64,000 nt of DNA, taken from contig NC_091988.1 of the NCBI RefSeq assembly GCF_044704955.1, forward strand, positions 93,124,001 through 93,188,000. The letters run 5' to 3'. How positions within the stretch are numbered: position 1 is the first letter of the stretch; every line of letters starts with the position of its first letter. Under the pieces are notes generated by a model that worked only from the letters and a program-made list of their open reading frames with translations, had not been told where the DNA came from and made no database searches. Positions 6,778 through 58,769 of the stretch are shown piece after piece. Both the position numbers and the translations under genes were made by a program. This DNA comes from Pristiophorus japonicus (lineage: Eukaryota).

Positions 6778-8679
6778 GTAGGCAAGTGATGGTTTGAAAA
6801 AAAACCTGTGAATTTGCAATGGTTATGGACGAGGCTGCAGAGCCGAGCTTTGTGCGGGCAACCCTCGCCGAGACAGGCTGTGCATCTTGCGGCGAGAATC
6901 GCGGGTTCGGAGACGGTGGATTTCCATTGCTCGCTGGGATCGGGATTGTTTTGTACCCATAGAGTGGGGATCGGTTCACTAGAAGTAAACAGTGGCGTTT
7001 GTTTCCGTCTGTTACCGCTTGTGCAATTTACCGGTCCATGTATACATAATATCAACATATTAAAATGTTTGCATTATGTGTGTTTACATTATATCAAGCA
7101 AGAGGTGGCAATGAAACTGGCTACAATGTGATTTTGGGACTGTGTTTATATTGCTACATAACATACACGTGTGCATCAGTTGAAGGAGCTGGTTTGCTTG
7201 GGCACAGAATAGTTGTTTTAAGAGTTTGCATTGGCCTGGTTTAAAACTAAGGATCTATTTAAAAAAAAACGAGAAGAGTGCTTTTCTGGCCGGATCTGTG
7301 CAGGGGCTGTGCCAGGAGTTAGTTTCAGTCTGATTGAAGTTATTCTGCGGACCAGGCGACTACAATTCAGCTGGTGTGTTGTGGGGCAAAAAGATCAATT
7401 GGATTGACCCGCTGTTCAATTCGGCTCCCTTTTGATTATTGGCTGCACAATTCATTCTTCTTTCAAAGCACGATGCAAAATTCCAATTAAGGCCGCAATC
7501 TGTGCGCATATGTCTGATGTTTAAGGCCAAGCACTGAGAGCGCATCACGCCACAGCAGTGCTCAGTGTACCCCCTGCTTCACCCTTTGATGTGTGTGTGC
7601 CATTTAAACTGGAAAACATATACAGCAATAACCATTTTCCATCAATCTGTGCTGATGAATGTCGAAATCCAGTGTTTTTCAGACTTTAAATGTGACTATG
7701 TGGAGGGCTGCAGAATGTTACACCTGAGGCTTAGAATCTACCCTGGATGGTCCCACCCAATCCCATCCCATCATTCCTACTGCCTCATTCTGCCCATCTG
7801 ACTCCGACCATACACTGGCCCCTGGCTGAAAGGTTTTCCTACCTGTGACCAACCAGTGCTGCTCTTCACTGACCACTAGGTGTGCAAGAGCAACTCTGCG
7901 ATGACTTTTGCTCTCTTTCCCCAATGGGGAAATGTCTGGGGTCCCCCACTGTCCTGTCTGAAATCAGTGGGACAAGGGGGACAAAATTGGGCAGTGAGGC
8001 CTACCACTGTCTCACTGAACCAACCTAAATTTGCCTCCTCCCTCCCGCGCTGGGATCACTGCTGGCTGCGCCTTCCCCACCCACTGCAGTCATGCTGTCG
8101 GTGAGCTGGGGGAGAGTTTGACCCAGGTTTCCTCCGACCCACCACATCTTGGGGCCACCAAGTGGACCATGGTGGTAGGCCCCGGGTTTGGCAGAAATGG
8201 GTTCAAAAGTTCCAGTTGGAGTGAGAAGTTTTAGCAGTGGCCCGTCTCCCTTTACTTCTCCCTCTTGGCTTATCTGCTAACAGTCATGGCCTTGACCAAG
8301 GCCTTCAGTGGATGGCTTCATCCCATCTTGGGGACCTATGGCACCATTTAAAGCTTCTTCTGTATCTTCTCGAGGGTCACTGGAAGTCGGTCTGCAATCT
8401 CTCAATGAACTTAGCAACACACTTAAGAACAAAGGCAGAGGAGTATGAATGTCGGTAACTTCTGAGTTACCTTAGAAAACGCACATTTTTAAGAAAGGCA
8501 GGATTCAGAGTTGTGGCCTGAGGAAAAATTAAACTCTGACCTCACCAAGTGTTCGCTTAACAGCAATTAGACGTTGCTTAGAGACACAACTTCACTCTTA
8601 ACAGAATACACTCTTACAATGCATCCTTACAAAATAGTATACTACCTGACTTATTATGCTCAGAACATGGAAGGTCCAC

Positions 8680-14220: not shown

Positions 14221-14464
14221 TTTTTTTTAAAAATTCGTAGCCAATCTTTCCAATTCTTTGTCAAATCACAAACGCCAGAGGTCACCTTGCACACATCAAG
14301 GATCACTCTGTGCCAATGCTCTTAGCCAAAAGGCCGAGAGCCACTGCACCGTTCCTGGAAGTACTGCAATACCAGGTTCGTGCCATGGAGGTGGATGGGT
14401 CAGGCCCCCCACACACCTCCGTGGAGGTGGATGGGTCAATCCACCCCACCCACCTCCTATTTCC
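14221..14464 (-). mobile_element. U2 snRNA-derived short retroposon (SINE-like), copy 1
   Basis: Minus strand: two U2 SLIII-like hairpins, U2 3' end (acctggtattgcagtacttccaggaacggtgca; 14345-14377), U2 5' end (tctcggccttttggctaaga; 14320-14339), ~90 nt unique tail, poly(A). Near-identical copy at 48280. Confidence 0.8.
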
Positions 14465-17734: not shown

Positions 17735-18076
17735 TAGGTTTATATACTCGGTCAGTTTCAAGAGCCAGGGTTTATATACTCGGTCAGTTTCAAGAACCAG
17801 GGTTTATAGACTTGGTCAGTTTCAAGAACCAGGGTTTATAGACTCGGTCAGTTTCAAGAACCAAGGTTTATATACTCGGTCAGTTTCAAGAGCCAGGGTT
17901 TATATACTTGATCAGTTTCAAGAACCAGGGTTTATATACTCGGTCAGTTTCAAGAGCCAGGGTTTATATACTCGGTCAGTTTCAAGAACCAGGGTTTAAT
18001 ACTCGGTCAGTTTCAAGAACCAGGGTTTAATACACAGTTTCACGGTGTTGGCATTGGTGTACTCGGTCAGTTTCAG
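17735..18076. repeat. 32-bp minisatellite, about 9 copies plus a partial copy
   Basis: Unit gggtttatatactcggtcagtttcaaga(a/g)cca, with 32-nt spacing (17751, 17783, 17815...). Confidence 0.95.
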
Positions 18077-21100: not shown

Positions 21101-24100
21101 AAAAGGGATGAGGTCCTACGAAACGAATTTAAGGAGCTAGGAGCTAAATTAAAAAGTAGGACCTCAAAAGTAGTAATCTCGGGATTGCTACCAGTGCCAC
21201 GTGCTAGTCAGAGTAGGAATCGCAGGATAGCGCAGATGAATACGTGGCTTGAGCAGTGGTGCAGCAGGGAGGGATTCAAATTCCTGGGACATTGGAACCG
21301 GTTCTGGGGGAGGTGGGACCAGTACAAAGCGGACGGTCTGCACCTGGGCAGGACCAGAACCAATGTCCTAGGGGGAGTGTTTGCTAGTGCTGTTGGGGAG
21401 GAGTTAAACTAATATGGCAGGGGGATGGGAACCAATGCAGGGAGACAGAGGGAAACAAAAAGGAGACAAAAGCAAAAGACAGAAAGGAGATGAGGAAAAG
21501 TGGAGGGCAGAGAAACCCAAGACAAAAAACAAAAAGGGCCACTGTACAGCAAAATTCTAAAAGGACAAAGTGTGTTAAAAAAACAAGCCTGAAGGCTTTG
21601 TGTCTTAATGCAAGGAGTATCCGTAATAAGGTGGATGAATTAACTGTGCAAATAGATGTTAACAAATATGATGTGATTGGGATTACGGAGATGTGGCTCC
21701 AGGATGATCAGGGCTGGGAACTCAACATCCAGGGGTATTCAACATTCAGGAAGGATAGAATAAAAGGAAAAGGAGGTGGGGTAGCATTGCTGGTTAAAGA
21801 GGAGATTAATGCAATAGTTAGAATGGACATTAGCTTGGATGATGTGGAATCTATATGGGTAGAGCTGCAGAACACAAAAGGGCAAAAAACGTTAGTGGGA
21901 GTTGTGTACAGATCTCCAAACAGTAGTAGTGATTTTGGGGAGGGCATCAAACAGGAAATTAGGGGTGCATGCAATAAGGGTGCAGCAGTTATAATGGGTG
22001 ACTTTAATATGCACATAGATTGGGCTAACCAAACTGGAAGCAATACGGTGGAGGAGGATTTCCTGAAGTGCATAAGGGATGGTTTTCTAGACCAATATGT
22101 CGAGGAACCAACCAGGGGGGAGGCCATCTTAGACTGGGTGTTGTGTAATGAGAGAGGATTAATTAGCAGTCCCGTTGTGCGAGGCCCCTTGGGGAAGAGT
22201 GACCATAATATGGTGGAATTCTGCATTAGGATGGAGAATGAAACAGTTAATTCAGAGACCATGGTCCAGAACTTAAAGAAAGGTAACTTTGAAGGTATGA
22301 GGCATGAATTGGCTAGGATTGATTGGCGAATGATACTTAAGGGGTTGACTGTGGATGGGCATTGACAGACATTTAGAGAGCGCATGGATGAACTACAACA
22401 ATTGTACATTCCTGTCTGTCGTAAAAATAAAAAAGGGAAGGTGACTCAACTGTGGCTATCAAGGGAAATCAGGGATAGTATTAAAGCAAAGGAAGTGGCA
22501 TACAAATTGGCCAGAAATAGCAGTGAACCCGGAGACTGGGAGAAATTTAGAACTCAGCAGAGGAGGACAAAGTGTTTGATTAGGGCAGGGAAAATGGAGT
22601 ACGAGAAGAAGCTTGCAGGGAACATTAAGACGGATTGCAAAAGTTTCTATAGATATGTAAAGAGAAAAAGGTTAGTAAAGACAAATGTAGGTCCCCTGCA
22701 ATCAGAATCAGGGGAAGTCATAACGGGGAACAAAGAAATGGCGGACCAATTGAACAAGTACTTTGGTTCGGTATTCACTAAGGAGGACACTAACAACCTT
22801 CCGGATATAAGAGGGGTCAGAGGGTCTAGTAAGGAGGAGGAACTGAGGGAAATCCTTATTAGTCGGGAAATTGTGTTGGGGAAATTAATGGGATTGAAGG
22901 CCGATAAATCCCCAGGGCCTGATGGACTGCATCCCAGAATACTTAAGGAGGTGGCCTTTGAAATAGCGGATGCATTGACAGTCATTTTCCAACATTCCAT
23001 TGACTCTGGATCAGTTTCTATCGAGTGGAGGGTAGCCAATGTAACCCCACTTTTTTAAAAAGGAGGGAGAGAGAAAACAGGGAATTATAGACCGGTCAGC
23101 CTGACATCGGTAGTAGGTAAAATGATGGAATCAATTATTAAGGATGTCATAGCAGCGCATTTGGAAAGAGGTGACATGATAGGTCCAAGTCAGCATGGAT
23201 TTGTGAAAGGGAAATCATGCTTGACAAATCTTCTAGAATTTTTTGAGGATGTTTCCAGTAGAGTGGACAAGGGAGAACCAGTTGATGTGGTATATTTGTA
23301 CTTTCAGAAGGCTTTCGACAAAGTCCCACACAAGAGATTAATGTGCAAAGTTAAAGCACATGGGATTGGGGGTAGTGTGCTGACATGGATTGAGAACTGG
23401 TTGTCAGACAGGAAGCAAAGAGTAGGAGTAAATGGGTACTTTTCAGAATGGCAGGCGGTGACTAGTGGGGTACCGCAAGGTTCTGTGCTGGGGCCCCAGC
23501 TGTTTACACTGTACATTAATGATTTAGACGAGGGGATTTAATGTAGTATCTCCAAATTTGCGGATGACACTAAGTTAGGTGGCAGTGTGAGCTGCGAGGA
23601 GGATGCTATGAGGCTGCAGAACGACTTGGATAGGTTAGGTGAGTGGGCAAATGCATGGCAGATGAAGTATAATGTGGATAAATGTGAGGTTATCCACTTT
23701 GGTGGTAAAAACAGAGAGACAGACTATTATCTGAATGGTGACAGATTAGGAAAAGGGGAGGTGCAACGAGACCTGGGTGTCATGGTACATCAGTCATTGA
23801 AGGTTGGCATGCAAGTACAGCAGGCGGTTAAGAAAGCAAATGGCATGTTGGCCTTCATAGCGAGGGGATTTGAGTACAGGGGCAGGGAGGTGTTGCTACA
23901 GTTGTACAGGGCCTTGGTGAGGCTACACCTGGAGTATTGTGTACAGTTTTGGTCTCCTAACTTGAGGAAGGACATTCTTGCTATTGAGGGAGTGCAGCGA
24001 AGGTTCACCAGACTGATTCCCGGGATGGCAGGACTGACCTATCAAGAAAGACTGGATCAACTGGGCTTGTATTCACTGGAGTTCAGAAGAATGAGAGGGG

Positions 24101-24950
24101 ACCTCATTGAAACGTTTAAAATTCTGATGGGTTTAGACAGGTTAGATGCAGGAAGAATGTTCCCAATGTTGGGGAAGTCCAGAACCAGGGGTCACAGTCT
24201 ACGGATAAGGGGTAAGCCATTTAAGACCGAGATGAAGAGGAACTTCTTCACCCAGAGAGTGGTGAACCTGTGGAATTCTCTACCACAGAAAGTTGTTGAG
24301 GCCAATTCATTAAATATATTCAAAAAGGAGTTTGATGTCGTCCTTACTACTAAGGGGATCAAGGGGTATGGTGAGAAAGCAGGAATGGGGTACTGAAGTT
24401 GCATGTTCAGCCATGAACTCATTGAATGGTGGTGCAGGCTAGAAGGGCCGAATGGCCTACTCCTGCACCTATTTTCTATGTTTCTCTGTTTCTAAGTCTC
24501 GCTCACCCATCACCTCTGTGCTCGCTGACCTACATTGGCTCCCTGTTACGCAACGCCTCGATTTCACAATTCTTATTCTTGTTTCCAAATCCCTCCATGG
24601 CCTCGCCTCTCCCTATCTCTGTAATCTCCTTCAGCCTCACAGCCCCCCGAGATATTTGCACTCCTCTAATTCTGCCCTCTTCAGCATCTCAACCATTGGT
24701 GGCTGTGGCTTCAGCTGCCTGGGCCCTAAGTTCTGGCACTCCCTCCCTAAACCTCTCTGCCTCTCTACCTCTCTTTCCTCCTTTAAGATGCTGCTTAAAA
24801 CCTACCTCTTTGACCAAGCTTTTGTTCATCTGCCGTAATTTTTTCTTATGTGGCTCGGTGTCAAATTTATTTGATTTGTCTTATAATACTCCTGTGAAGA
24901 CCCTTGGGATGTTTTATTATGTTAAAGGCGCTATATAAATACAAGTTGGT
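18150..24950 (+). mobile_element. L2 LINE (endonuclease + RT, degenerate), split by a CR1 at 20766-24493
   Basis: Endonuclease-like segment near 18320-18720, YRPISNLPF, KYADDTQLY. The sequence ...actcgcaccaagt at 20765 resumes as aagtctcgctcacccatc at 24494. L2 tail at ~24945. Confidence 0.9.
20766..24493 (+). mobile_element. Young CR1 LINE with ORF1 C-terminal part and near-intact ORF2
   Basis: ORF1 SGNH/GDSL esterase motifs (GDSIVRG, VVHIGTND, DGLHL). ORF2 endonuclease (LNARSIRNK, GDFN, SDHN) and RT ([20 protein letters not shown]). Only a few stops or shifts. TSD aagt at 20762-20765 and 24494-24497. Confidence 0.95.
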
Positions 24951-28489: not shown

Positions 28490-29281
28490 TAAACACTGAG
28501 AATGATGGACAGTAGGGGGGGGGGGGTTACATTGAGAATGATCGACAGGAAGGGGGGGGTTACACTGAGAATGATGGACAGTCAGGGGGAGGGGTTACAC
28601 TGAGAATGATGGACAGTGGGGGGGGGTTACACTGAGAATGATGGACAGTCGGGGGGAGGGGTTACACTGAGAATGATGAACAGTAGGGGGGGGTTACACT
28701 GAGAATGATGGACAGTAGGGGGGAGGGGTTACACTGAGAATGATCGACAGGCAGGGGAGGGGTTACACTGAGAATGATCGACAGGCAGGGGGGAGGAGTT
28801 ACACTGAGAATGATGGACAGTCGGGGGGAGGGATTACACTGAGTGATGACAGTCAAGGGGGGAGGGGTTACACTGAGAATGATGGACAGTCGGGGGGGAG
28901 GGGGTTACACTGAGTGATGACAGTCGGGGGGGGGAGGGGTTACACTGAGAATGATGACAGTCAGTGGGGGAGGGGGGTTACACTGAGAATGATGGACAGG
29001 AAGGGGGAGGGGTTACACTGAGAATGATGACAGTCAGTGGGGGGAGGGAGGTTACACTGAGAATGATGGACAGGCAGGGGGAGGGATTACACTGAGAATG
29101 ATGGACCGTCAGTGGGGGAGGGGATACACTGAGACTGATGGACAGTCGGGGGGAGGGGTTACACTGAGAATGATTGACAGTCGGGGGGAGGGTTATACTG
29201 AGAATGATTGACAGTCGGGGGGAGGGTTACACTGAGAATGATTGACAGTCGGGGGGAGGGTTACATTGAGAATGATGGACA
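28490..29281. repeat. G-rich minisatellite, about 23 units of ~31-39 bp
   Basis: Core gttacactgagaatgatggacag followed by variable G-runs. Confidence 0.95.
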
Positions 29282-30098
29282 GCTGGTTGTTCAGTGCAGT
29301 GCGTTCCCAGCTGTTGGATGTTCTCCATGTCGCACACTGCCAGATGTTGATTACTCACTGCTCTCTGAGGACATGGAGCGCCGTGAAGGATACCCAGTTT
29401 GCAGAGTCATCACGGGATTGGCCTGTCATTCCAACCACAGTTGAGTTCCTATATTAAATGAAAATATTCCGTTTAATTTGAATTCATCTATTTATTCAAT
29501 GTGTGATCTGAACAGAATACATGATGAGAAGCTGTGGGTGATCCACTTCGGAGAGCTGACTGATAACTCGTTCACCACGCTCAGATTACGTGTTTTCTCT
29601 GATTTGTTTCTGGGGCTTTGTTTTTCCCTTTGCCCGCCTCCTTCTTTCCTGGAGATATTGTCTTCCTGTCTTCCTGAGCGGACATTATTTGCCCTCTCTC
29701 CCTCACCCAAGTGTCTTCGAATGAGAGTGCTGCCGCGCTATTCGATGTTCGTGAGCATCGTGTTCAAGTTTGATCCTGCCTCGACCTAGTCTTAAGGCAC
29801 ACTCACTTTCCAGTGGAGGTTACAGTGATCAGGAACCCAAGCTCATTTTCCCCATCCTTGGCCCAGGAGAGCTGAGGGCAACTGTGACGTGTCATTGTCT
29901 CTGTATGTGTGAGTGTCTTTCTTTATCTGCTTCCGTATACATGTGTCTCTCGGGCCGAGCGGTCCCAGGCACCGCTCCAAACCTGAAGGATGGCAATATC
30001 TAAAATGGCAGCTCCTCCGCGGAGACTCAGCAGCCATTCTGCACCGGCCTGTGGCTGCCACTTTCAGTCGGCCATGGGCCTTATAGAAAAGGGCAATC

Positions 30099-31553: not shown

Positions 31554-32657
31554 CTTAGACAAACTCCTGGACGCATAGGCGACTGGTTGCAATGTTCCTG
31601 ATTCGTTAGCTTGTTGTAACATACACCTGACCCCGTATGAAGACGCATCGCAAGCTAGCACCAAACGTTTACATGGGTTATACAGAACAGGCAGTTTGTT
31701 GGGACATAACAGATTTCTGGCTTTCTCAAAAACAGCCTCTTATGATTTCCCCCATACCCAGTCGTCTCCCTTGCGTAACAGCACATGTAGGGGTTCTAGC
31801 AAGGTGCTTAACCCGGGTATGAAATTACCGAAATAGTTGAGGAGTCCCAGGAACGACTGCAGCTCCATCACGTTCTGTGATTTCGGCACGTTTGATGGCC
31901 TCCGACTTGGCGTCAGTGGATCTGATGCCGTCTCCCTAAGAACTCGACCGCTGGTGCCAGGAAAACACACTTAGAGCATTTCAACCTGAGTCCCACGCGA
32001 TCTAGCTGACTTAGAACCTCGTCCAAGTTTTGCAAGTGTTCAATGGTGTCTCGACGATGGTGTATCATCCTGGAAAACCATGGTGCGCGGAACCGACTTT
32101 AGCAGGCTCTCCATGTTCCTTTGGAAAATTGCTGCGGCCGAATCCCAAACAGGCATCTATTGTAGATGAACAGACCTTTGTGCGTATTGATGCAGGTGAG
32201 GCCTTTCGAAGATTCCACCAGCTCCTGTGTTCATGTAGGACGAGGTCAGGTCCAACTTGGTGAACATCTTTCCTCCAGCCAGGATCGCACATAGGTCGTC
32301 TGCCTTGGGTAGCGGGTATTGGTCCTGTAGCGAAAAATGGTTCATTGTTACTTTATAGTCCCCACAAATTCTGACCGTGCTGTCGCCTTTGAGAACCCGA
32401 ACAATTGGACAGGCTCACTTGTTGAACTCCACCGACGCAATGATGCCTTCTCACTGCAGCCTATCCAGCTCAATTTCCACTTTCTCTCGCATCATATATG
32501 GCCCGTGCCTTGTGGTGGATGGGTCGTGTACCAGGACCCAAGTGGATCTGCATCTTCATCCCTGTGAAACTTCCGATGCCTGGCTCAAAGAACGACGGGA
32601 ACTTTCTCAGTACCTGGGCACATGAGGCGTCATTGATGGACGAGAGCGCTCGGATGT

Positions 32658-35352
32658 GGTTAGGAAGGACATTAGTTGGGAATAGTTAGGAAGGACATTA
32701 GCTTGGATGATGTGGAATCTATATGGGTAGAGCTGCAGAACACCAAAGGGCAAAAAACGTTAGTGGGAGTTGTGTACAGACCTCCAAACAGTAGTAGTGA
32801 TGTTGGGGAGGGCATCAAACAGGAAATTAGGGGTGCATGCAATAAAGGTGCAGCAGTTATCGTGGGTGGCTTTAATATGCATATAGATTGGGCTAACCAA
32901 ACTGGAAGCAATACGGTGGAGAAGGATTTCCTGGAGTGCATAAGGTATGGTTTTCTAGACCAATATGTCGAGGAATCAACGAAGGGTGAGGCCATCTTAG
33001 TCTGGGTGTTGTGTAATGAGAGAGGATTAATTAGCAATCGTTGTGCGAGGCCCCTTGGGGAAGAGTGACCATAATATGGTGGAATTCTACATTAGGATGG
33101 AGAATGAAACAGTTAATTCAGAGACCATGGTCCAGAACTTAAAGAAGGGTAACTTTGAAGGTATGAGGCGTGAATTGGCTAGGATTGATTGGCAAATGAT
33201 ACTTAAGGGGTTGACAGTGGATGGGCAATGGCAGAAATTTAGAGACCGCATGGATAAACTACAACAATTGTACATCCCTGTCTGAAGTAAAAATAAAAAA
33301 GGGAAGATGGCTCAACCGTGGCTATCAAGGGAAATCAGGGATAGTATTAAAGCCAAGGAAGTGGCATACAAATTGGCCAGAAATAGCAGTGAATCCGGGG
33401 ACTGGAAGAAATTTAGAACTCAGCAGAGGAGGCCAAAGGGTTTGATTAGGGCAGGGAAAATAGAGTAGGAGAGGAAGCTTGCAGGGAACATTAAGATGGA
33501 TTGCAAAAGCTTCTATAGATATGTAAAGAGAAAAAGGTTAGTAAAGACAAACGTAGGTCCCCTGCAGTCAGAATCAGGGGAAGTCATAACGGGGAACAAA
33601 GAAATGGCAGACTAATTGAACAAGTACTTTGGTTCGGTATTCACTAAGGAGGACACAAACAACCTTCCGGATATAAAAAGGGTCAGAGGGTCTAGTAAGA
33701 AGGAGGAACTGAGGAAAATCCTTATCAGTCGGGAAATTGTTTTGGGGAAATTGATGGGATAAAGGCCGATAAATCCCCAGGGCCTGATGGACTGCATCCC
33801 AGAGTACTTAAGGAGGTGGCCTTGGAAATAGCGGATGCATTGACAGTCATTTTCCAACATTCCATAGACTTTGGATCAGTTCCTATGGAGTGGAGGGTAG
33901 CCAATGTAACCCCACTTTTTTAAAAAGGAGGGAGAGAGAAAACAGGGAATTATAGACCGGTCAGCCTGACATCGGTAGTAGGTAAAATGATGGAATCAAT
34001 TATTAAGGATGTCATAGCAGCGCATTTGGAAAGAGGTGACATGATAGGTCCAAGTCAGCATGGATTTGTGAAAGGGAAATCATGCTTGACAAATCTTCTG
34101 GAATTTTTTGAGGATGTTTCCAGTAGAGTGGACAAGGGAGAACCAGTTGATGTGGTGTATTTTGACTTTCAGAAGGCTTTCGACAAGGTCCCACACAAGA
34201 GATTAATGTGCAAAGTTAAAGCACATGGGATTGGGGGTAGTGTGCTGACATGGATTGAGAACTGGTTGTCAGACAGGAAGCAAAGAGTAGGAGTAAATGG
34301 GTACTTTTCAGAATGGCAGGCAGTGACTAGTGGGGTACCGCAAGGTTCTGTGCTGGGGCCCCAGCTGTTTACATTGTACATTAATGATTTAGACGAGGGG
34401 ATTAAATGTAGTGTCTCCAAATTTGCGGATGGCACTAAGTTGGATGGCAGTATGAGCAGCGAGGAGGATGCTATGAGGCTGCAGAGTGACTTGGATAGGT
34501 TAGGTGAGTGGGCAAATGCATGGCAGATGAAGTATAATGTGGATAAATGTGAGATTATCCACTTTGGTGGTAAAAACAGAGAGACAGACTATTATCTGAA
34601 TGGTGACAGATTAGGAAAAGGGGAGGTGCAATGAGACCTGGGTGTCATGGTACATCAGTTATTGAAGGTTGGCATGCAGGTACAGCAGGCGGTTAAGAAA
34701 GCAAATGGCATGTTGGCCTTCGTAGCGAGGGGATTTGAGTACAGGGACAGGGAGGTGTTACTACAGTTGTACAGGGCCTTGGTGAGGCCACACCTGGAGT
34801 ATTGTGTACAGTTTTGGTCTCCTAACTTGAGGAAGGACATTCTTGCTATTGAGGGAGTGCAGCGAAGGTTCACCAGATTGATTCCCGGGATGGCGGGACT
34901 GACATATCAAGAAAGACCGGATCAACTGGGCTTGTATTCACTGGAGTTCAGAAGAATGAGAGGGGATCTCATAGAAACGTTTAAAATTCTGACGGGTTTA
35001 GACAGGTTAGATGCAGGAAGAATGTTCCCAATGTTGGGGAAGTCCAGAACCAGGGGTCACAATCTAAGAATAAGGGGTAAGCCATTTAGGACTGAGATGA
35101 GGAGAAACTTCTTCACCCAGAGAGTGGTGAACCTGTGGAATTCTCTACCACGGAAAGTTGTTGAGGTCAATTCACTAAATATATTCAAAAAGGAGTTAGC
35201 TGTAGTCCTTACTACTAAGGGGATCAAGGGGTATGGCGAGAAAGCAGGAATGGGGTACTGAAGTTACATGATCAGCCATGAACTCATTGAATGGCAGTGC
35301 AGGCTCGAAGGGCCGAATGGCCTACTCCTGCACCTATTTTCTATGTTTCTAT
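32658..35352 (+). mobile_element. Young CR1 LINE, same subfamily as 20766-24493, 5'-truncated in the endonuclease
   Basis: Near-identical to 21830-24490. TSD gatgt at 32653-32657 and 35353-35357. Confidence 0.95.
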
Positions 35353-36585
35353 GATGTCGTCCCAGTTCCAGTGCATTTTCCCAGCCAACTTTTGCCGAAC
35401 AGTGTGGGGCCATCTCCTGGTACAATCCATAGTGGGAGTTCGTGCACTGCTCCATCATAGGAGTCTTTTACTGCTGCGCTGCCAATAACAGCTCTTTAGT
35501 GTAAGTTCTTAACTTGGTATGAATGGGGCTAAGCTTGGGCCTGTGTGCCTTGTTGCACCACAGACTGTCGAAGGCCTTTTTGCTCATGATAGATTGACTC
35601 GCACCGTGTCCAGTTCCATGGATACTGGAATTCCATCCAGTTCAAATTTTAGCATGATCAGTGGATATTTCGTGGTGAAGGTGTGTACCCCGTACACTTC
35701 TGCCTCCTCGGTTCGAGTCTCTAGTTCAGCCTGATCCACCACGGATCGATCCTCTTCTGCAATGTGGTGGTTTGCAGGGTTTGCAGCTCATCTGCACATT
35801 CGCTGGAGGTGTCCCATTGTTCCACAGCCTTTGCACACATAGTGTTTGAAGCGGCATTGATGGGCTCAATGATCACCTCCGCAGCACCAACAAGGTGTTA
35901 ACTGCCTCGCATTAACGATTGATGGCAGACTCTGGGTCATCTGAGGTCGTGCAGCTGCCGGTGTGTATGTTCTGCCATATGCATTCCTGCCTGAAAATGA
36001 AGTCACTTTGTGTACAGTGTTGCGAAATTTATTCAGTGTTATTGCTGGTGGACATAAATGCCTGGACTATCGTTATGGCTTTGCTCAGATTCGGTGTTTC
36101 AACAGTCAATAGTTTGCGAAGGATAACCTCATGGCCAATGCCAAGCACAAAGAAGTCTCTTAGCATTTGCTCAAGGAATCCATCGAATTTGAAATGTCCT
36201 GCAAGGCGCATCAGTTCGGCGACATAGCTTGCCACTTCCTGGCCTTCAGACTGTTGACACGTGTAGAATCGATACCTTGCCATCAAAATGCTTTCCTTCG
36301 GATTTAGGTGCTCCCGGACCAGCGTATACAGTTCTTCATAGGATTTGGTTGTTGGTTTCACAGGAGCTATAAGATTCTTTATGAGGCCATAGGTTGTTGC
36401 CCCACAGACGGTGAGGAGGATCGGCCTTCGTTTGGCAGTGTTCTCGTCCCCTTCCAGGAGTTGGCCACGGAGTATTGGTCGAGTCGCTCCACGAAGGTCT
36501 CCCAATCGTCCCCCTCTGAGAATTTCTCCAGGATACCAACAGTTCTTTGCATTTTCGTGTGGTTGTTCGTTATCTCGTCGCCAGT

Positions 36586-48279: not shown

Positions 48280-48497
48280 TTTTTTTTTTAAATATTCGTA
48301 GCCAATCTTTCCAATTCTTTGTCAAATCACAAACGCCAGAGGTCACCTTGCACACATCAAGCATCACTCTGCGCCAATGCTCTTAGCCAAAAGGCCTGGA
48401 AGTACTGCAATACCAGGTTCGTGCCATGGAGGTGGATGGGTCAGCACCCCCACACACCTCCGTGGAGGTGGATGGGTCAAGCCACCCCACCCACCTC
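48280..48497 (-). mobile_element. U2 snRNA-derived short retroposon (SINE-like), copy 2
   Basis: Near-identical to copy 1 apart from a 20-nt internal deletion. Poly(T) on + at 48280-48289; TSD ccagcttt at 48275-48282 and 48498-48505. Confidence 0.8.
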
Positions 48498-48623
48498 CCA
48501 GCTTTGGGGTACCCGAATGTAGTGGTCATCTTACTGCACTACTAACCCAGAGGCCTGGACTAATGAGATTTACATTCCTCCCCTCCCTTGCAAAGTGAGT
48601 GTGGGCCTTCGTTCAGTCGTAGC

Positions 48624-51600
48624 TGTCATGTATTCAACCAACATTGTAACCCATGTATAAACTGACCTAAGTTGTAGACCGTGAGAACACTGATCACGAG
48701 GTGGGAGACACTCCTAACCTGGACCTTCAGGTATAAAAGGGGAAGCTCCACCCACCTTCGTCACTTGAGTGCTAAGGAATAAAGGACAGGTCACAGACTG
48801 ACCTTCTCTCAAGCATGGGCCTCATGTGCATTTATACTGTGTAGTAAGGACGTATCAATGGCGACAAGAAACTGGGATTTAAACCACGCGAGCATGGCCA
48901 CTAGCAGAACAGACGAGAGGTACTGTGTTAAGGAATGGTTGGGTCAGAGATTCAACATTGTTAAAGCAGCACACAGTTCTCCAGGCAGACAAGGGCAGTC
49001 AGGCATGCCCCAACATGTAGTCGAACCCAGAGGGGGAGTTCGACAGAGACAATGGCAAGCTGAACAGCGATTCACGCCATTGCAAGGGACAATGCGGACA
49101 GTAATGGGGCCATCAACACCTGTTAATGATGCACTCAAGGACAATAACAGGGGCAGTCAGGGACGATCGACTGGCAAGGGACCTTTTGTTTCAAACCGCA
49201 ACTCATGCTGGAGGCGTGGAGGCATACATTCAGCCGGAGTTTGCAGAGATGAGCAAAATATCTGCAGAAATTGCAGAAATGGACACTGGGGGAAATCGCT
49301 GGAAGCTGAAGTTCAGCGAGTTCATGTGGAGCACGTATACAGTTCATACACCAGGACGCCACCGATAATGATGAAAGTGCTCCTCAATGGCATCCCAGTA
49401 TCAATGGAGTTAGACACGGGTGCCAGCCAGTCCCTGATGGGTAGCAAACAGTTCGAAAAGTTGTGGGCATCCAAGGCCAGGAGGCCAAAATTATCACCGA
49501 TTGACGCACAGCTACGGACTTACACAAAGCAGATCATTCCGGTGCTAGGCAGTGCCACGGTAGTCGTGACCCACAAAGATTCGGAGAACAGGTTGCCACT
49601 CTGGATTGTCCCAGGGGACGGTCCCGCATTACTGGGGAGGAGTTGGCTTGCTGTCATGAACTGGAAATGGGGCGATGTCAATGCAATTTCCTCTGTGGAG
49701 CGAGTATCATGCTCACAGGTCCTGGACAAATTTGACTCATTATTTCAACCCGGCATTGGCACTTTCATGGGTGCCAAGGTACTGATTCACATAAACCCGG
49801 ACGCCAGACCAGTACACCACAAGGACCGCCTGTTGAGGGAAGGCATCATCTCGCCAGTCGAATTCAGTGACTGGGCGAGCCCGATTGTGCCGGTGCTCAA
49901 GGCGGATAGGTCGGTCAGGATATGTGCCGATTACAAGGCCACCATCAATCGGGTGTCACTCCAAGACCAGTACCCGCTATCGAGAGCGGAGGACCTCTTT
50001 GCGACGCTATCCGGTGGCAAACTTTTTCAAAATTGGACCTGACCTCAGCTTACATGACCCAGGCGAGTGAGTCGAAGAAGCTGACCACCATCACGACACA
50101 CAAGGGGTTGTTTGAGTACAACAGATGTCCGTTCGGGATTCGCTCGGCCGCCGTGATCTTCCAACGAAATATGGAAAGCCTCCTCAAGTCGATTCCAGGG
50201 ACGGTGGTTTTTCAGGACGACATTCTCATTACGGGTTACGATACTGAAGAACACCTCCACAACCTGGAGGAGGTGCTACGCAGACTGGACCGGGTAGGTC
50301 TGCGACTGACAAAGGCGAAGTGCGTCTTCCTAGCTCCAGAGGTAGAATTCCTGGGGATGAGGGTAGCAGCAGACGGGATCAGCCGTACTGCATCCAAGAC
50401 GGAAGCGATCCAAAGAGCACCCAGACCCCGTAACACGACGGAGCTGCGTTCGTTCCTGGGGCTCCTGAACTATTTTGGTAACTTTCTTCCCAAATTGAGC
50501 ACGCTGCTAGAGCCGCTACACATGCTCCTACGCAAAGGTCGCGAATGGGTCTGGGGGGACAGCCAGGAAAGGGCTTTTAATAGAGCACGCAATTTGTTAT
50601 GTTCCAACAATCTGTTAACGCTATATGACCCATGTAAGAAACTTGTGTTAACGTGCGATGCGTCGTCCTATGGTATCGGGTGTGTGTTGCAGCATGTCAA
50701 TATCAAGGGTCAGTTACAGCCGGTAGCTTATGCCTCCAGGAGTCTGTCCCAGGCAGAAAGGGGCTACGGGATGGTAGAAAAGGAGGCGCTCGCATGTGTA
50801 TATGCAGTAAAGAAAATGCACCAGTACCTGTTTGGCAGGAAATTTGAGCTGGAGACAGATCACAAACCCCCAACGTCCCTTTTGGCCGACAACAAGGCCA
50901 TAAATGCAAACGCATCGGCCCGCATACAGAGGTGGGCACTCACGTTAGCTGCCTATGACTACACAATTCAGCACAGACCGGGCACCGAAAACTGCGCCGA
51001 TGCACTCAGCAGGCTCCCACTAGCCACCACTGAGGGGGCTACCGAGCATGGTGCTGAGATGGTCATGGCTGTTGAAGCTTTCGGAAGCGAAGGCTCACCC
51101 GTGACAGCCCGTCAGATTAAAGTCTGCACAAATAGAGATCCGCTATTGTCTCTAGTCAAGAAATGTGTCCTGAATGGGGACTAGGCAGCCATGTACAGGG
51201 CATGCCCTGAGAAATTTAAACCATTTCACAGGCGCAAGGATGAACTCTCGATTCAGGCCGATTACCTACTGTGGGGAAACCGCGTAGTCATGCCCCAGAT
51301 GGGCAGAGAGGTGTTCATCAGAGAACTCCACAATGGGCACCCGGGCATTGTCATGATGAAGGCAATTGCCAGGTCACACGTTTGGTGGCCAGGGATAGAC
51401 GCAGATCTGGAACTTTGTGTTCGCAGGTGCAACACGTGTGCCCAGCTGGGCCATGCGCCCAGGGAAGCCCCCCTTAGCCCCTGGCCATGGCCCGCTAAGC
51501 CTTGGTCACGCATCCATGTGGACTACGCAGGTCCTTTCATGGGGAAAATGTTTTTGGTTGTAGTAGACGCCTACTCCAAATGGATCGAGTGTGACATTTT

Positions 51601-52691
51601 AAATTCAAGCACATCCTCTGCCACGGTAGAAAGTCTACGGGCAATGTTCGCCGCCCACGGTCTACCGGACATCTTGATCAGCGACAATGGCCCGTGCTTC
51701 ACAAGCACTGAATTCCAGGACTTCATGGCAGGCAATGGAATTAACCATGTTAGAACGGCACCGTTCAAGCCGGCCTCAAACGGCCAGGCAGAACGAGCAG
51801 TGCAGATATTCAAACAGGGGATACTCAGATTCCAAGGGGGTTCCCTACAAACCCGCTTATCACGCCTCCTGTTGGCCTATAGATCCCGACCACACTCGCT
51901 CACAGGGGTTCCACCCGCAGAGCTACTAATGAAAAGGACGCTCAAAACCCGATTATCCCTTATACACCCTACCATGAAAGAAATTGTCGAGAGCAGGCGC
52001 CAGTCACAATATCACTACCATGACAGGAATGCGAGGGCGCGATGTATTGATGTAAATGATCCTGTTTTTGTCCTCAACTATGCTGCAGGGCCTAAATGGC
52101 TCGCAGGCACTGTGGTTGCCAAAGAGGGAAATAGGATTCTGGTAGTTAAACTTACCAATGCACAAATCTGCCGCAAACATGTGGATCAAACAAAAAGGAG
52201 GTTCAGCAACCCCATAGAAGAAGCAGAGGAAGAACACGATATAGAGTTCACTCCACCACAGATGACCGAACACCGGAACCAAAGGGAGGAGAGTCCAGTC
52301 ACTGTGGCAGTCCGGACAGGCCTGAGGCACTGCAAACAGCAGACACTCAGGCCAGCGCCCAACAACCGGAGCCCCAACTCAGGCGCTCTACAAGGGAGCG
52401 TAAACCACCAGAGAGACTCAACCTGTGATCCCAATAAGACTTTGGGGGGGGAGGTGATGTCATGTATTCAACCAGCATTGTAACCCATGTATAAACTGAC
52501 CTAAGTTGTACACCGTGAGAACACTGACCTCTAGGTGGGAGACACTCCTAACCTGGACCTTCAGGTTTAAAAGGGGAAGCTCCACCCACCTTCATCACTT
52601 GAATGCTGAGGAATAAAGGACAGGTCACAGACTGACCTTCTCTCAAGCATGGGCCTCGTGTGCATTTATACTGTGTAGTAAGGACGTATCA
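48624..52691 (+). mobile_element. Gypsy LTR retrotransposon with both LTRs; gag largely deleted
   Basis: 234-bp LTRs (TG...CA) at 48624-48857 and 52458-52691; PBS-like TGGCGAC; PPT (G-run then aggtga); TSD gtagc at 48619-48623 and 52692-52696. Inserted in a Deu-SINE head that resumes at ~52697. Confidence 0.97.
48858..52483 (+). pseudogene. Disrupted gag-pol of the Gypsy element
   Basis: Protease LDTGAS, RT FQDD, RNase H CDAS/ETDHKP/ADALSR, integrase HPG...C-x2-C, HVDY, SDNG, AERAV. One frameshift near 50025 and a stop at 51182-51184. Confidence 0.9.
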
Positions 52692-56612: not shown

Positions 56613-58769
56613 GGGACCGAAATTGCCCTCCGCCTCAAACGGGGCGCAATTACCGTTTTGTAAGTGTTCTGTCCGGCCCAATGCATGGGGCGGATAACCG
56701 GCGAAATTTAGGACTTTATTTCTTTATTTGCAGCGGGTGTTATCATCAGGGCGGAAATGTGGGCGTGTCGGAACGGCTGTCGCTCCGACTCATCAGCACC
56801 ATGCTGACCCGTCACAACATCCCTCCCCTTCAGTTAAAGGGGAAGGCTGCTGCGAACTCTGCAAGGAGGGTTTGGTCTGGGTCAGTGGTCTAAGAGAGGG
56901 TGTCGGGCTGCCTGTTGGCGTCCTGGCCGAACCAGTGATCACCATTAGAAACATAGAAACGTAGAAAATAGGTGCAGGAGTAGGCCATTCAGCCCTTCGA
57001 GCCTGCACCGCCATTCAATGAGTTCATGGCTGAACATGCAACCTCAGTACCCCATTCCTGCTTTCTCGCCATACCCCTTGATCCCCCTAGTAGTAAGGAC
57101 TACATCTAACTCCTTTTTGAATATATTTAGTGAATTGGCCTCAACAACTTTCTGTGGTAGAGAATTCCACAGGTTCACCACTCTCTGGGTGAAGAAGTTT
57201 CTCCTCATCTCAGTCCTAAATGGCTTAACCCTTATCCTTAGACTGTGACCCCTGGTTCTGGACTTCCCCAACATTGGGAACATTCTTCCTGAATCTAACC
57301 TGTCTAAACCCGTCAGAATTTTAAACGTTTCTATGAGATCCCCTCTCATTCTTCTGAACTCCAGTGAATACAAGCCCAGTTGATCCAGTCTTTCTTGATA
57401 TGTCAGTCCCGCCATCCTGGGAATCAGTCTGGTGAACCTTCGCTGCACTCCCTCAATAGCAAGAATGTCCTTCCTCAAGTTAGGAGACCAAAACTGTACA
57501 CAATACTCCAGGTGTGGCCTCACCAAGGCCCTGTATAACTGTAGCAACACCTCCCTGCCTCTGTACTCAAATCCCCTCGCTATGAAGGCCAACATGCCAT
57601 TTGCTTTCTTAACCGCCTGTTGTACCTGCATGCCAACCTTCAATGACTGATGTACCATGACACCAGGTCTCGTTGCACCTCCCCTTTTCCTAATCTGTCA
57701 CCATTCAGATAATAGTCTGTCTCTCTGTTTTTACCATCAAAGTGGATAACCTCACATTTATCCACATTATACTTCATCTACCATGCATTTGCCCACTCAC
57801 CTAACCTATCCAAGTCACTCTGCAGCCTCATAGCATCCTCCTCGCAGCTCACACTGCCACCCAACTTAGTGCCATCCGCAAATTTGGAGATACTACATTT
57901 AATCTCCTCGTCTAAATCATTAATGTACAATGTAAACAGCTGGGGCCTCAGCACAGAACCTTGCGGTACCCCACTAGTCATTGCCTGCCATTCTGAAAAG
58001 TACCCATTTACTCCTACTCTTTGTTTCCTGTCTGACAACCAGTTCTTAATCCATGTCAGCACACTACCCCCAATCCCATGTGCTTTAACTTTGCACATTA
58101 ATCTCTTGTGTGGGACCTTGTCGAAAGCCTTCTGAAAGTCCAAATATACCACATCAACTGGTTCTCCCTTGTCCGCTCTACTGGAAACATCCTCAAAAAA
58201 TTCCAGAAGATTTGTCAAGCATGATTTCCCTTTCACAAATCCATGCTGACTTGGACCTATCATGTCACCTCTTTCCAAATGCGCTGCTATGACATCCTTA
58301 ATAATTGATTCCATCATTTTACCCACTACCGATGTCAGGCTGACCGGTCTATAATTCCCTGTTTTCTCTCTCCCTCCTTTTTAAAAAAGTGGGGTTACAT
58401 TGGCTACCCTCCACTCCATAGGAACTGATCCAAAGTCTATGGAATGTTGGAAAATGATTGTCAATACATCCGCTATTTCCAAGGCCACCTCCTTAAGTAC
58501 CCTGGGATGCAGTCCATCAGGCCCTGGGGATTTATCGGCCTTCAATCCCATCAATTTCCCCAACACAATTTCCCGACTAATAATGATTTTCCTCAGTTCC
58601 TCCTTCTTACTAGACCCTCTGACCCCTTTTATATCCGGAAGGTTGTTTGTGTCCTCCTTAGTGAATACCGAACCAAAGTACTTGTTCAATTGGTCTGTCA
58701 TTTCTTTGTTCCCCATTATGACGGAATGACCTGGTCACGGCTCTTATAGAAAGGGGCAATTTTGGCCCC
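56613..58769. mobile_element. GC-rich TIR element, split by a CR1
   Basis: Left gggaccgaaattgccc, right gggcaattttggcccc. Shares the internal motif tccccttca(g/c)ttaaagggga with the 47080 element. Confidence 0.7.
56948..58712 (-). mobile_element. Young CR1 LINE, same subfamily as 20766 and 32658, opposite orientation
   Basis: Minus-strand ORFs are near-identical to those copies. Flanking ccatta at 56942-56947 and 58713-58718. Confidence 0.95.

Follow-up and report, generated by a model that had tools for sequence, protein, structure and literature searches.

The DNA analysed here, a 64,000-nt stretch of a shark genome of 5.9 Gb (on contig C12 in the labels of this report, and called the window below), carries two members of a real, young family of non-coding retroposons that is SINEU-like: the family has a head made from U1 and U2, is shorter than 500 bp with a 3' poly(A), has junctions that are shared between copies, and has a target in common with a LINE of the Tx1 clade. 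We liken it to SINEU by the published description, not by consensus sequences, and do not file it under SINEU-1, SINEU-2 or SINEU-3. Of the possible explanations we favour one, with a probability of about 0.72, in which copies residing in U2 genes would be source genes under the snRNA promoter and would be moved by a Keno-like LINE.

Table 1. Retroposon copies in the window, with the parts of the copy at 14.2 kb.
Feature	Position in window	Strand
5'-truncated subfamily A copy of the U2/U1 mosaic retroposon (positions 113-356 of 356)	14221..14464	minus
Linker just 3' of the Sm-like U5 tract; 5' truncation point, within the family-wide hot spot	14458..14464	minus
Hairpin 1, remodelled U2 stem-loop III; U2 97-147 aligns at 72%	14424..14457	minus
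Hairpin 2, second remodelled copy of stem-loop III	14387..14420	minus
Piece of U2 stem-loop IV; U2 109-186 aligns at 76% over hairpin 2 and this piece	14344..14378	minus
Second U2 head, U2 nt 7-29, 22/23 identical	14317..14339	minus
Family tail; a shorter form is shared with older subfamilies; without match to the LINE 3' UTR	14230..14316	minus
Poly(A) end	14221..14229	minus
Second copy, positions 120-356, with a 20-nt internal deletion and an 8-nt target-site duplication found by eye	48282..48498	minus

The two window copies (Table 1) are 89% identical by BLASTN, the 20-nt deletion included, and lie 34 kb apart in unrelated flanks, the distance and the flanks being as the first-pass annotation had described. 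No target-site duplication was found around the 14.2-kb copy. The minus strand of 14221-14464 folds at -99.5 kcal/mol (z = -4.9), and none of 200 shuffles folded as well. The layout that had been read from this strand is correct, with a 7-nt linker, two GC-rich hairpins, a piece of U2 stem-loop IV, U2 nt 7-29, a tail of ~87 nt and poly(A), and so is the proposal of a duplicated stem-loop III, since both hairpins are remodelled, duplicated copies of it (72-76% identity). What did not stand is the permutation of U2: the order SLIII-SLIII-SLIV-SLI arises because a dimer-like element, made of a U2-derived unit, a second U2 head and a tail, is 5'-truncated here, and a permuted single U2 is ruled out by full-length copies and by alignment to the genome's own U2 and U1 genes. 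The earlier list of parts was accurate for the truncated copy but lacked the U2 head and the U1 insert; the place where both window copies begin is a hot spot of truncation and not the element's own start. Because both window copies are truncated, the Rfam search detected U2 in neither of them, while a full-length copy (L002) scores 55 bits with the same model (gathering score 46). Rfam matches to prion pseudoknots in the window were below threshold and are ascribed to chance.

Most of 30 fetched loci reach about 112 nt further 5' than the window copy, up to the first base of U2. Aligned to the U2 and U1 genes of the same genome, the element of 356 nt reads U2(1-35)+U1(3-57)+U1(28-47)+U2(97-147)+U2(109-186)+U2(7-29)+tail+poly(A), where U2 1-35 is 94% and U1 3-57 is 82% identical to the genome's own genes. 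In L002 the U1 model scores 23.4 bits (E 0.0095). This is not an ordinary U2 pseudogene, as the first-pass annotation had concluded; a processed copy of U2 would be collinear with U2 only, and is contradicted by the U1 insert, the duplication, the second head and the tail. A classical Pol III SINE with a tRNA, 7SL or 5S head was likewise rejected, as the head is U2 and ARAGORN found no tRNA in any of the 30 loci; the A- and B-box motifs of an internal Pol III promoter had no match in the element, which contains internal oligo-T runs (T4, T5, T4). A tRNA head is confined to a single copy, L002, with a weak Rfam tRNA match (E 0.077) and none by ARAGORN. In that copy the segment 5' of the U2 head and inside the target duplication (L002:1862-1960, minus) resembles a tRNA, with what looks like an intron and with a TTTT-terminated trailer; it likely results from a template switch onto a pre-tRNA, which we take to be an Arg pre-tRNA. 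The suspicion that the element could be just a LINE 3' UTR was put to rest by the tail, which shares nothing with the 3' UTR of the U2-resident LINE (for subfamily A, 34 of 100 shuffles score as high), and a SIDE-type LINE derivative is rejected for the same reason.

The family is large, and here too the initial impression of a repeated retroposon was justified. The junction between second head and tail occurs in 5,829 exact copies in the genome, and exact patterns diagnostic of the subfamilies (A to D and C0, labels coined in this analysis) were counted 1,991 times for the A head, 386 times for the B head, 379 times for the C junction, 223 times for the D head and 30 times for the C0 junction; all of these counts are lower bounds, and the reversed control gave 0 for each. 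Copies that are 98-100% identical lie on many contigs (DNA search, best 40 of 1,485 candidates scored), and full-length copies begin at U2 +1. The 5' ends of all 87 junction copies from the initial 93 Mb of contig C1 were assigned by rule. Positions 1-20 account for 46 of them, the 20 nt that follow the U5 tract on its 3' side for 32, and other places for 9; about 24 copies are arranged in tandem. Internal truncation is far from uniform, with 32 of 41 such events in A/B types falling within one 21-nt window (binomial p 2e-25 vs uniform), compared with 8 of 9 in C0 and 2 of 6 in C. The copying enzyme could be stopped there by an Sm ring or by stem-loop III.

Target duplications of 7-20 nt were found at 78 of 158 clusters by automatic detection, which misses some. 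The motif G[CT]A+ is present at the cut in 41 of these 78 (null mean 3.1, maximum 10 of 300), its A-run being partly built into the method, and a narrower form that the U2 site also fits was seen at 15 of 78 dispersed SINE sites, against 0.4 in the null. The targets observed are U2 nt 38/39 and scattered G(C/T)/A sites (the slash marking the cut). The same site is shared with another SINE flank in 24 of 132 SINE flanks (offset controls 0-4).

Younger copies are often found immediately 5' of older ones, separated from them by the target duplication (L053, L074, L185, L211, L234, L246 and others). Subfamily B occupies this position relative to D in 5 of 30 D loci, and A or B relative to C in several C loci, which points to repeated use of the same nick.

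The U2 genes of this genome form tandem arrays with units of ~760 bp, together with a second type spaced at 18-21 kb. Subfamily B (85% identical to A by BLASTN) interrupts genuine U2 genes: the DNA upstream of the gene is unchanged and runs directly into the element at U2 +1, and the poly(A) of the element is joined to U2 nt 39. Junctions of poly(A) to U2 nt 39 number 93 in the genome; 82 were examined (the other 11 belong to the second array type and one small contig), comprising 21 SINEs in a U2 gene (20 B, 1 A), 23 SINEs in older C-like copies, 21 LINE 3' ends and 17 others, some of which are variant SINE or LINE ends. When 96 promoter-bearing array units were fetched from regions picked around insertions, where unplaced contigs may repeat one array, 66 were intact U2, 17 had SINE-B at +1, 12 had the LINE and 1 was of another kind. 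In 15 of the 17 B units the upstream 240 nt are identical to those of the commonest intact unit, and the upstream DNA of a further B copy (L137) matches an intact gene of the second U2 type at 100% over 270 nt. Subfamily B has 18 copies whose first base is U2 +1 and whose upstream DNA resembles that of intact U2 genes.

Both the SINE and the LINE knock out copies of the U2 gene: in the assembled part of one array (G000:C19:69615400-69725700), which runs into an assembly gap, 16 of 17 promoter-bearing U2 units are interrupted, 11 by the LINE and 5 by the SINE. In the second U2 type (L085, L086, L139), each large unit has, behind its intact U2 gene, a fragment of the LINE 3' end and then U2 39-191, an arrangement that is apparently fixed in the unit.

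The LINE in the U2 arrays is 5.7 kb long, with intact ORF1 (ZCCHC3-RBD, zf-CCHC) and ORF2 (APE, RT and zf-RVT; PF03372, PF00078, PF13966), a start that resembles U2 +1 and a poly(A) end joined to U2 nt 39. Among the matches to its RT are a protein named 'transposon TX1' and, at 39%, an RT from Takifugu; none is named Keno. Short, partial protein matches to two shark proteins were also obtained, a weak hint of a cartilaginous fish as host. The 3' flank of the LINE, U2 from nt 39, is the Keno target printed in PMC6136364. By its domains and its target site this LINE is Tx1-type and Keno-like. Keno (Tx1 clade) and Utopia are LINEs that target U2 at the site used by the array LINE, which is like them in its APE endonuclease and in this 3' flank (PMC4640811, PMC6136364). 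They differ from the shark SINE in being autonomous, and the relevant passages of these papers name no non-autonomous partner (PMC4640811, PMC6136364); a further difference from the systems described there is that most LINE 3' ends and SINE copies in the shark lie outside U2 genes.

Our favoured reading starts from what is seen, namely high copy number, poly(A), target-site duplications and variable 5' ends up to U2 +1, and a poly(A)/U2 nt 39 junction common to SINE and LINE, both in U2 genes and within the older SINE copies that resemble U2. The element is likely copied by the enzymes of the Keno-like LINE, because sister copies sit in U2 genes at the insertion base of the LINE, and, judging from the fusion of B to U2 upstream DNA, it is likely transcribed from the host U2 promoter. 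The promoter-linked B copies would then be source genes, with Pol II starting at +1 and continuing beyond the poly(A) to transcribe U2 39-191 as well; the internal A tract would be where reverse transcription is primed. The U2 1-28 head may pair with the target, so restoring the +1 junction at each new U2 insertion, and relaxed cutting at G(C/T)/A-type sites would scatter most copies elsewhere as dead ends. Function of the U2 promoter is assumed in this scheme, because an octamer, present at both U1 genes tested, was not found in the upstream DNA of the two U2 gene types. Besides the missing octamer, points that weigh against the scheme are the failure to find subfamily A behind a promoter, the absence of the main B array haplotype from 30 dispersed copies, the unshared tail, and the weak fit of dispersed LINE duplications to the SINE motif; all are set out below with the rival readings. 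Seven sequencing runs, all of one organism and from two studies, share at least half of the words searched, and no RNA run was listed among the matches.

A more specific version is put forward only tentatively, as we consider it possible rather than probable. The family would be a promoter-less retroposon homing into U2 genes, each insertion restoring the U2 +1 head under an snRNA promoter; the target site and the splicing-active motifs would have been deleted, and an Sm ring on the RNA would block reverse transcription, explaining the truncation hot spot. If true, a SINE would here have a life cycle that mimics snRNPs.

Rather unlikely, in our view, is a SINEU-like family moved by a Tx1 LINE for which the U2-resident copies are sinks, the sources being dispersed copies with flanking or cryptic internal promoters. 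It draws on the missing octamer, and on the finding that subfamily A was not seen behind a promoter in any of 18 copies reaching +1 (the pattern covered the two known U2 upstream ends), the sole A copy found in a U2 gene (L136) having lost its upstream DNA. It also draws on the commonest B array haplotype (15 of 17), which is identical to none of 30 dispersed copies, so that the array B copies may be daughters, may have been spread by array turnover, or may be duplicated on unplaced contigs. The tail, moreover, has three ATTGG motifs that could act as CCAAT boxes. Against this reading, however, copies end at U2 +1 without sharing upstream DNA, two heads in the lineage stop at nt 38, the base at which the LINE cuts, and, of 30 dispersed copies with the B head, 8 match a U2-resident copy exactly in their core, in 4 cases the promoter-linked L137.

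We consider it improbable that the element is transcribed from U2 genes while a second LINE that recognises poly(A), of another Tx1 or an L1 family, makes most of the dispersed copies. The absence of a shared 3' tail would suit such a division of labour; recognition by the Keno-like LINE would then rest on poly(A) or on structure. Dispersed LINE duplications fit G[CT]A+ weakly, in 2 of 10 cases, and there are several LINE subfamilies: because the 449 exact LINE 3' ends vary (identity spans 84-100% in 30 examined) and only these 2 of 10 fit the motif, more than one subfamily is a candidate for mobilising the SINE. Nevertheless, SINE and LINE insert at the same base, subfamily B occupying the LINE's insertion site in neighbouring U2 units, and the two are stacked at one site in L121, L169, L293 and L299. 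Secondary sites are also common to both, as 4 of 28 dispersed LINE flanks share their site with a SINE flank (ten offset controls 0-1). The L1 target motif is of the TT/AAAA type, from which the SINE motif differs.

A functional variant snRNA gene, the observed copies being its processed pseudogenes, is very improbable. The first 234 nt of the full element do exceed the U2 gathering score, and B does lie behind U2 upstream DNA, but subfamilies A and B lack the hexamer that pairs with the branch point and have an altered U1 5'-splice-site motif, the resident copies break U2 genes with poly(A), and the subfamilies turn over rapidly, with insertions of one inside another. An accumulation of independently formed U2/U1 chimeric retrocopies, or a LINE 3' end, is already refuted by the junction counts: template switches do occur (the tRNA-like piece in L002, a U1 piece in L322), but one U2-U1 junction is exact in 1,991 copies, and none of the 87 copies continues into a LINE at its own 5' end, barring separate stacked insertions.

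Nested copies preserve a record of how such a SINE is built. One locus (L157) contains four nested insertions, with A in a C-type copy, this in another C-type copy, and that in C0. In 28 of 30 copies the oldest form, C0, has U2 (95-100%) followed by a second U2 head, which runs to nt 38, and then by a short tail with poly(A); the other 2 have the second head only. Most full C0 copies have a common 9-nt deletion in U2. The second head of this form reaches the LINE insertion point, nt 38, and the first head of D is U2 up to nt 38 in 30 of 30 copies, starting at nt 1-24. Two heads that end at the cut base of the LINE would be the expected remnant of a capture of the 5' part of the host gene. We infer that U2(1-38) plus tail gained a whole U2 by template switch, giving C0, and then drifted (C), and that in D, B and A a U1 piece later took the place of the middle, so that the element would have lost its own target site. 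Target site and branch-point hexamer are both lost in A and B, while C keeps the target site and is hit. Self-masking of the hexamer was considered and rejected, as it is predicted to be mostly unpaired in the older forms (0.60-0.75 in C0 and C vs 0.80 in U2). At another locus (L322) a C0 copy carries a piece of U1 on its 5' side, the type of event that could have founded the U1-bearing subfamilies.

The closest known system is SINEU, whose members SINEU-1, -2 and -3 are reported from crocodilians alone, with Mariner-N4_AMi as their target (Kojima 2015, PMC4494074). As described there, SINEU elements are like the shark family in being short and poly(A)-ended, with heads derived from U1/U2 and repeated 5' additions and partial duplications, in their internal oligo-T and tandem copies around a target duplication, and in a Tx1-type partner inferred from shared targets without a LINE tail in common (PMC4494074). 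They differ in that the shark element targets the U2 gene itself, has copies at U2 +1 behind upstream DNA, and has the order U2-U1-U1-U2-U2-U2-tail, with nested copies that record its history. The same paper calls SINEU transcription an open question, the U1/U2 promoters being outside the RNA (PMC4494074). Shark loci with the element at U2 +1 behind U2 upstream DNA, beside an intact LINE of the same site, make this question directly testable, and the family extends snRNA-headed SINEs beyond crocodilians.

A precedent for co-transcription is offered by the R2 SIDEs of Drosophila, non-autonomous elements that sit in a multicopy RNA gene at the site of their partner and are co-transcribed from the host gene (PMC3414825). 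The shark element is similarly non-autonomous and similarly placed, but SIDEs, which reside in rDNA and have a ribozyme, derive from R2/R1 by deletion (PMC3414825), whereas in the shark element no LINE-derived part was found, the host's own 5' end serves as head, and thousands of copies are dispersed. Literature searches found no description of this family, although subscription journals, Repbase Reports and supplements may hold one.

Two features of the Keno-like LINE should be mentioned. Its 5' UTR has an octamer motif and ATTGG (L084 near 7290-7320, minus), whereas the U2 upstream DNA is without octamer, and its U2-like head carries two changes that spoil the target site. The window also contains three RT-encoding LINE copies (21791-24488, 32657-35353 and 56945-58722), 95-96% identical and presumably CR1-like, two minisatellites (17736-18075 and 28493-29282) and, at about 48800-52500, a pol region of LTR type.
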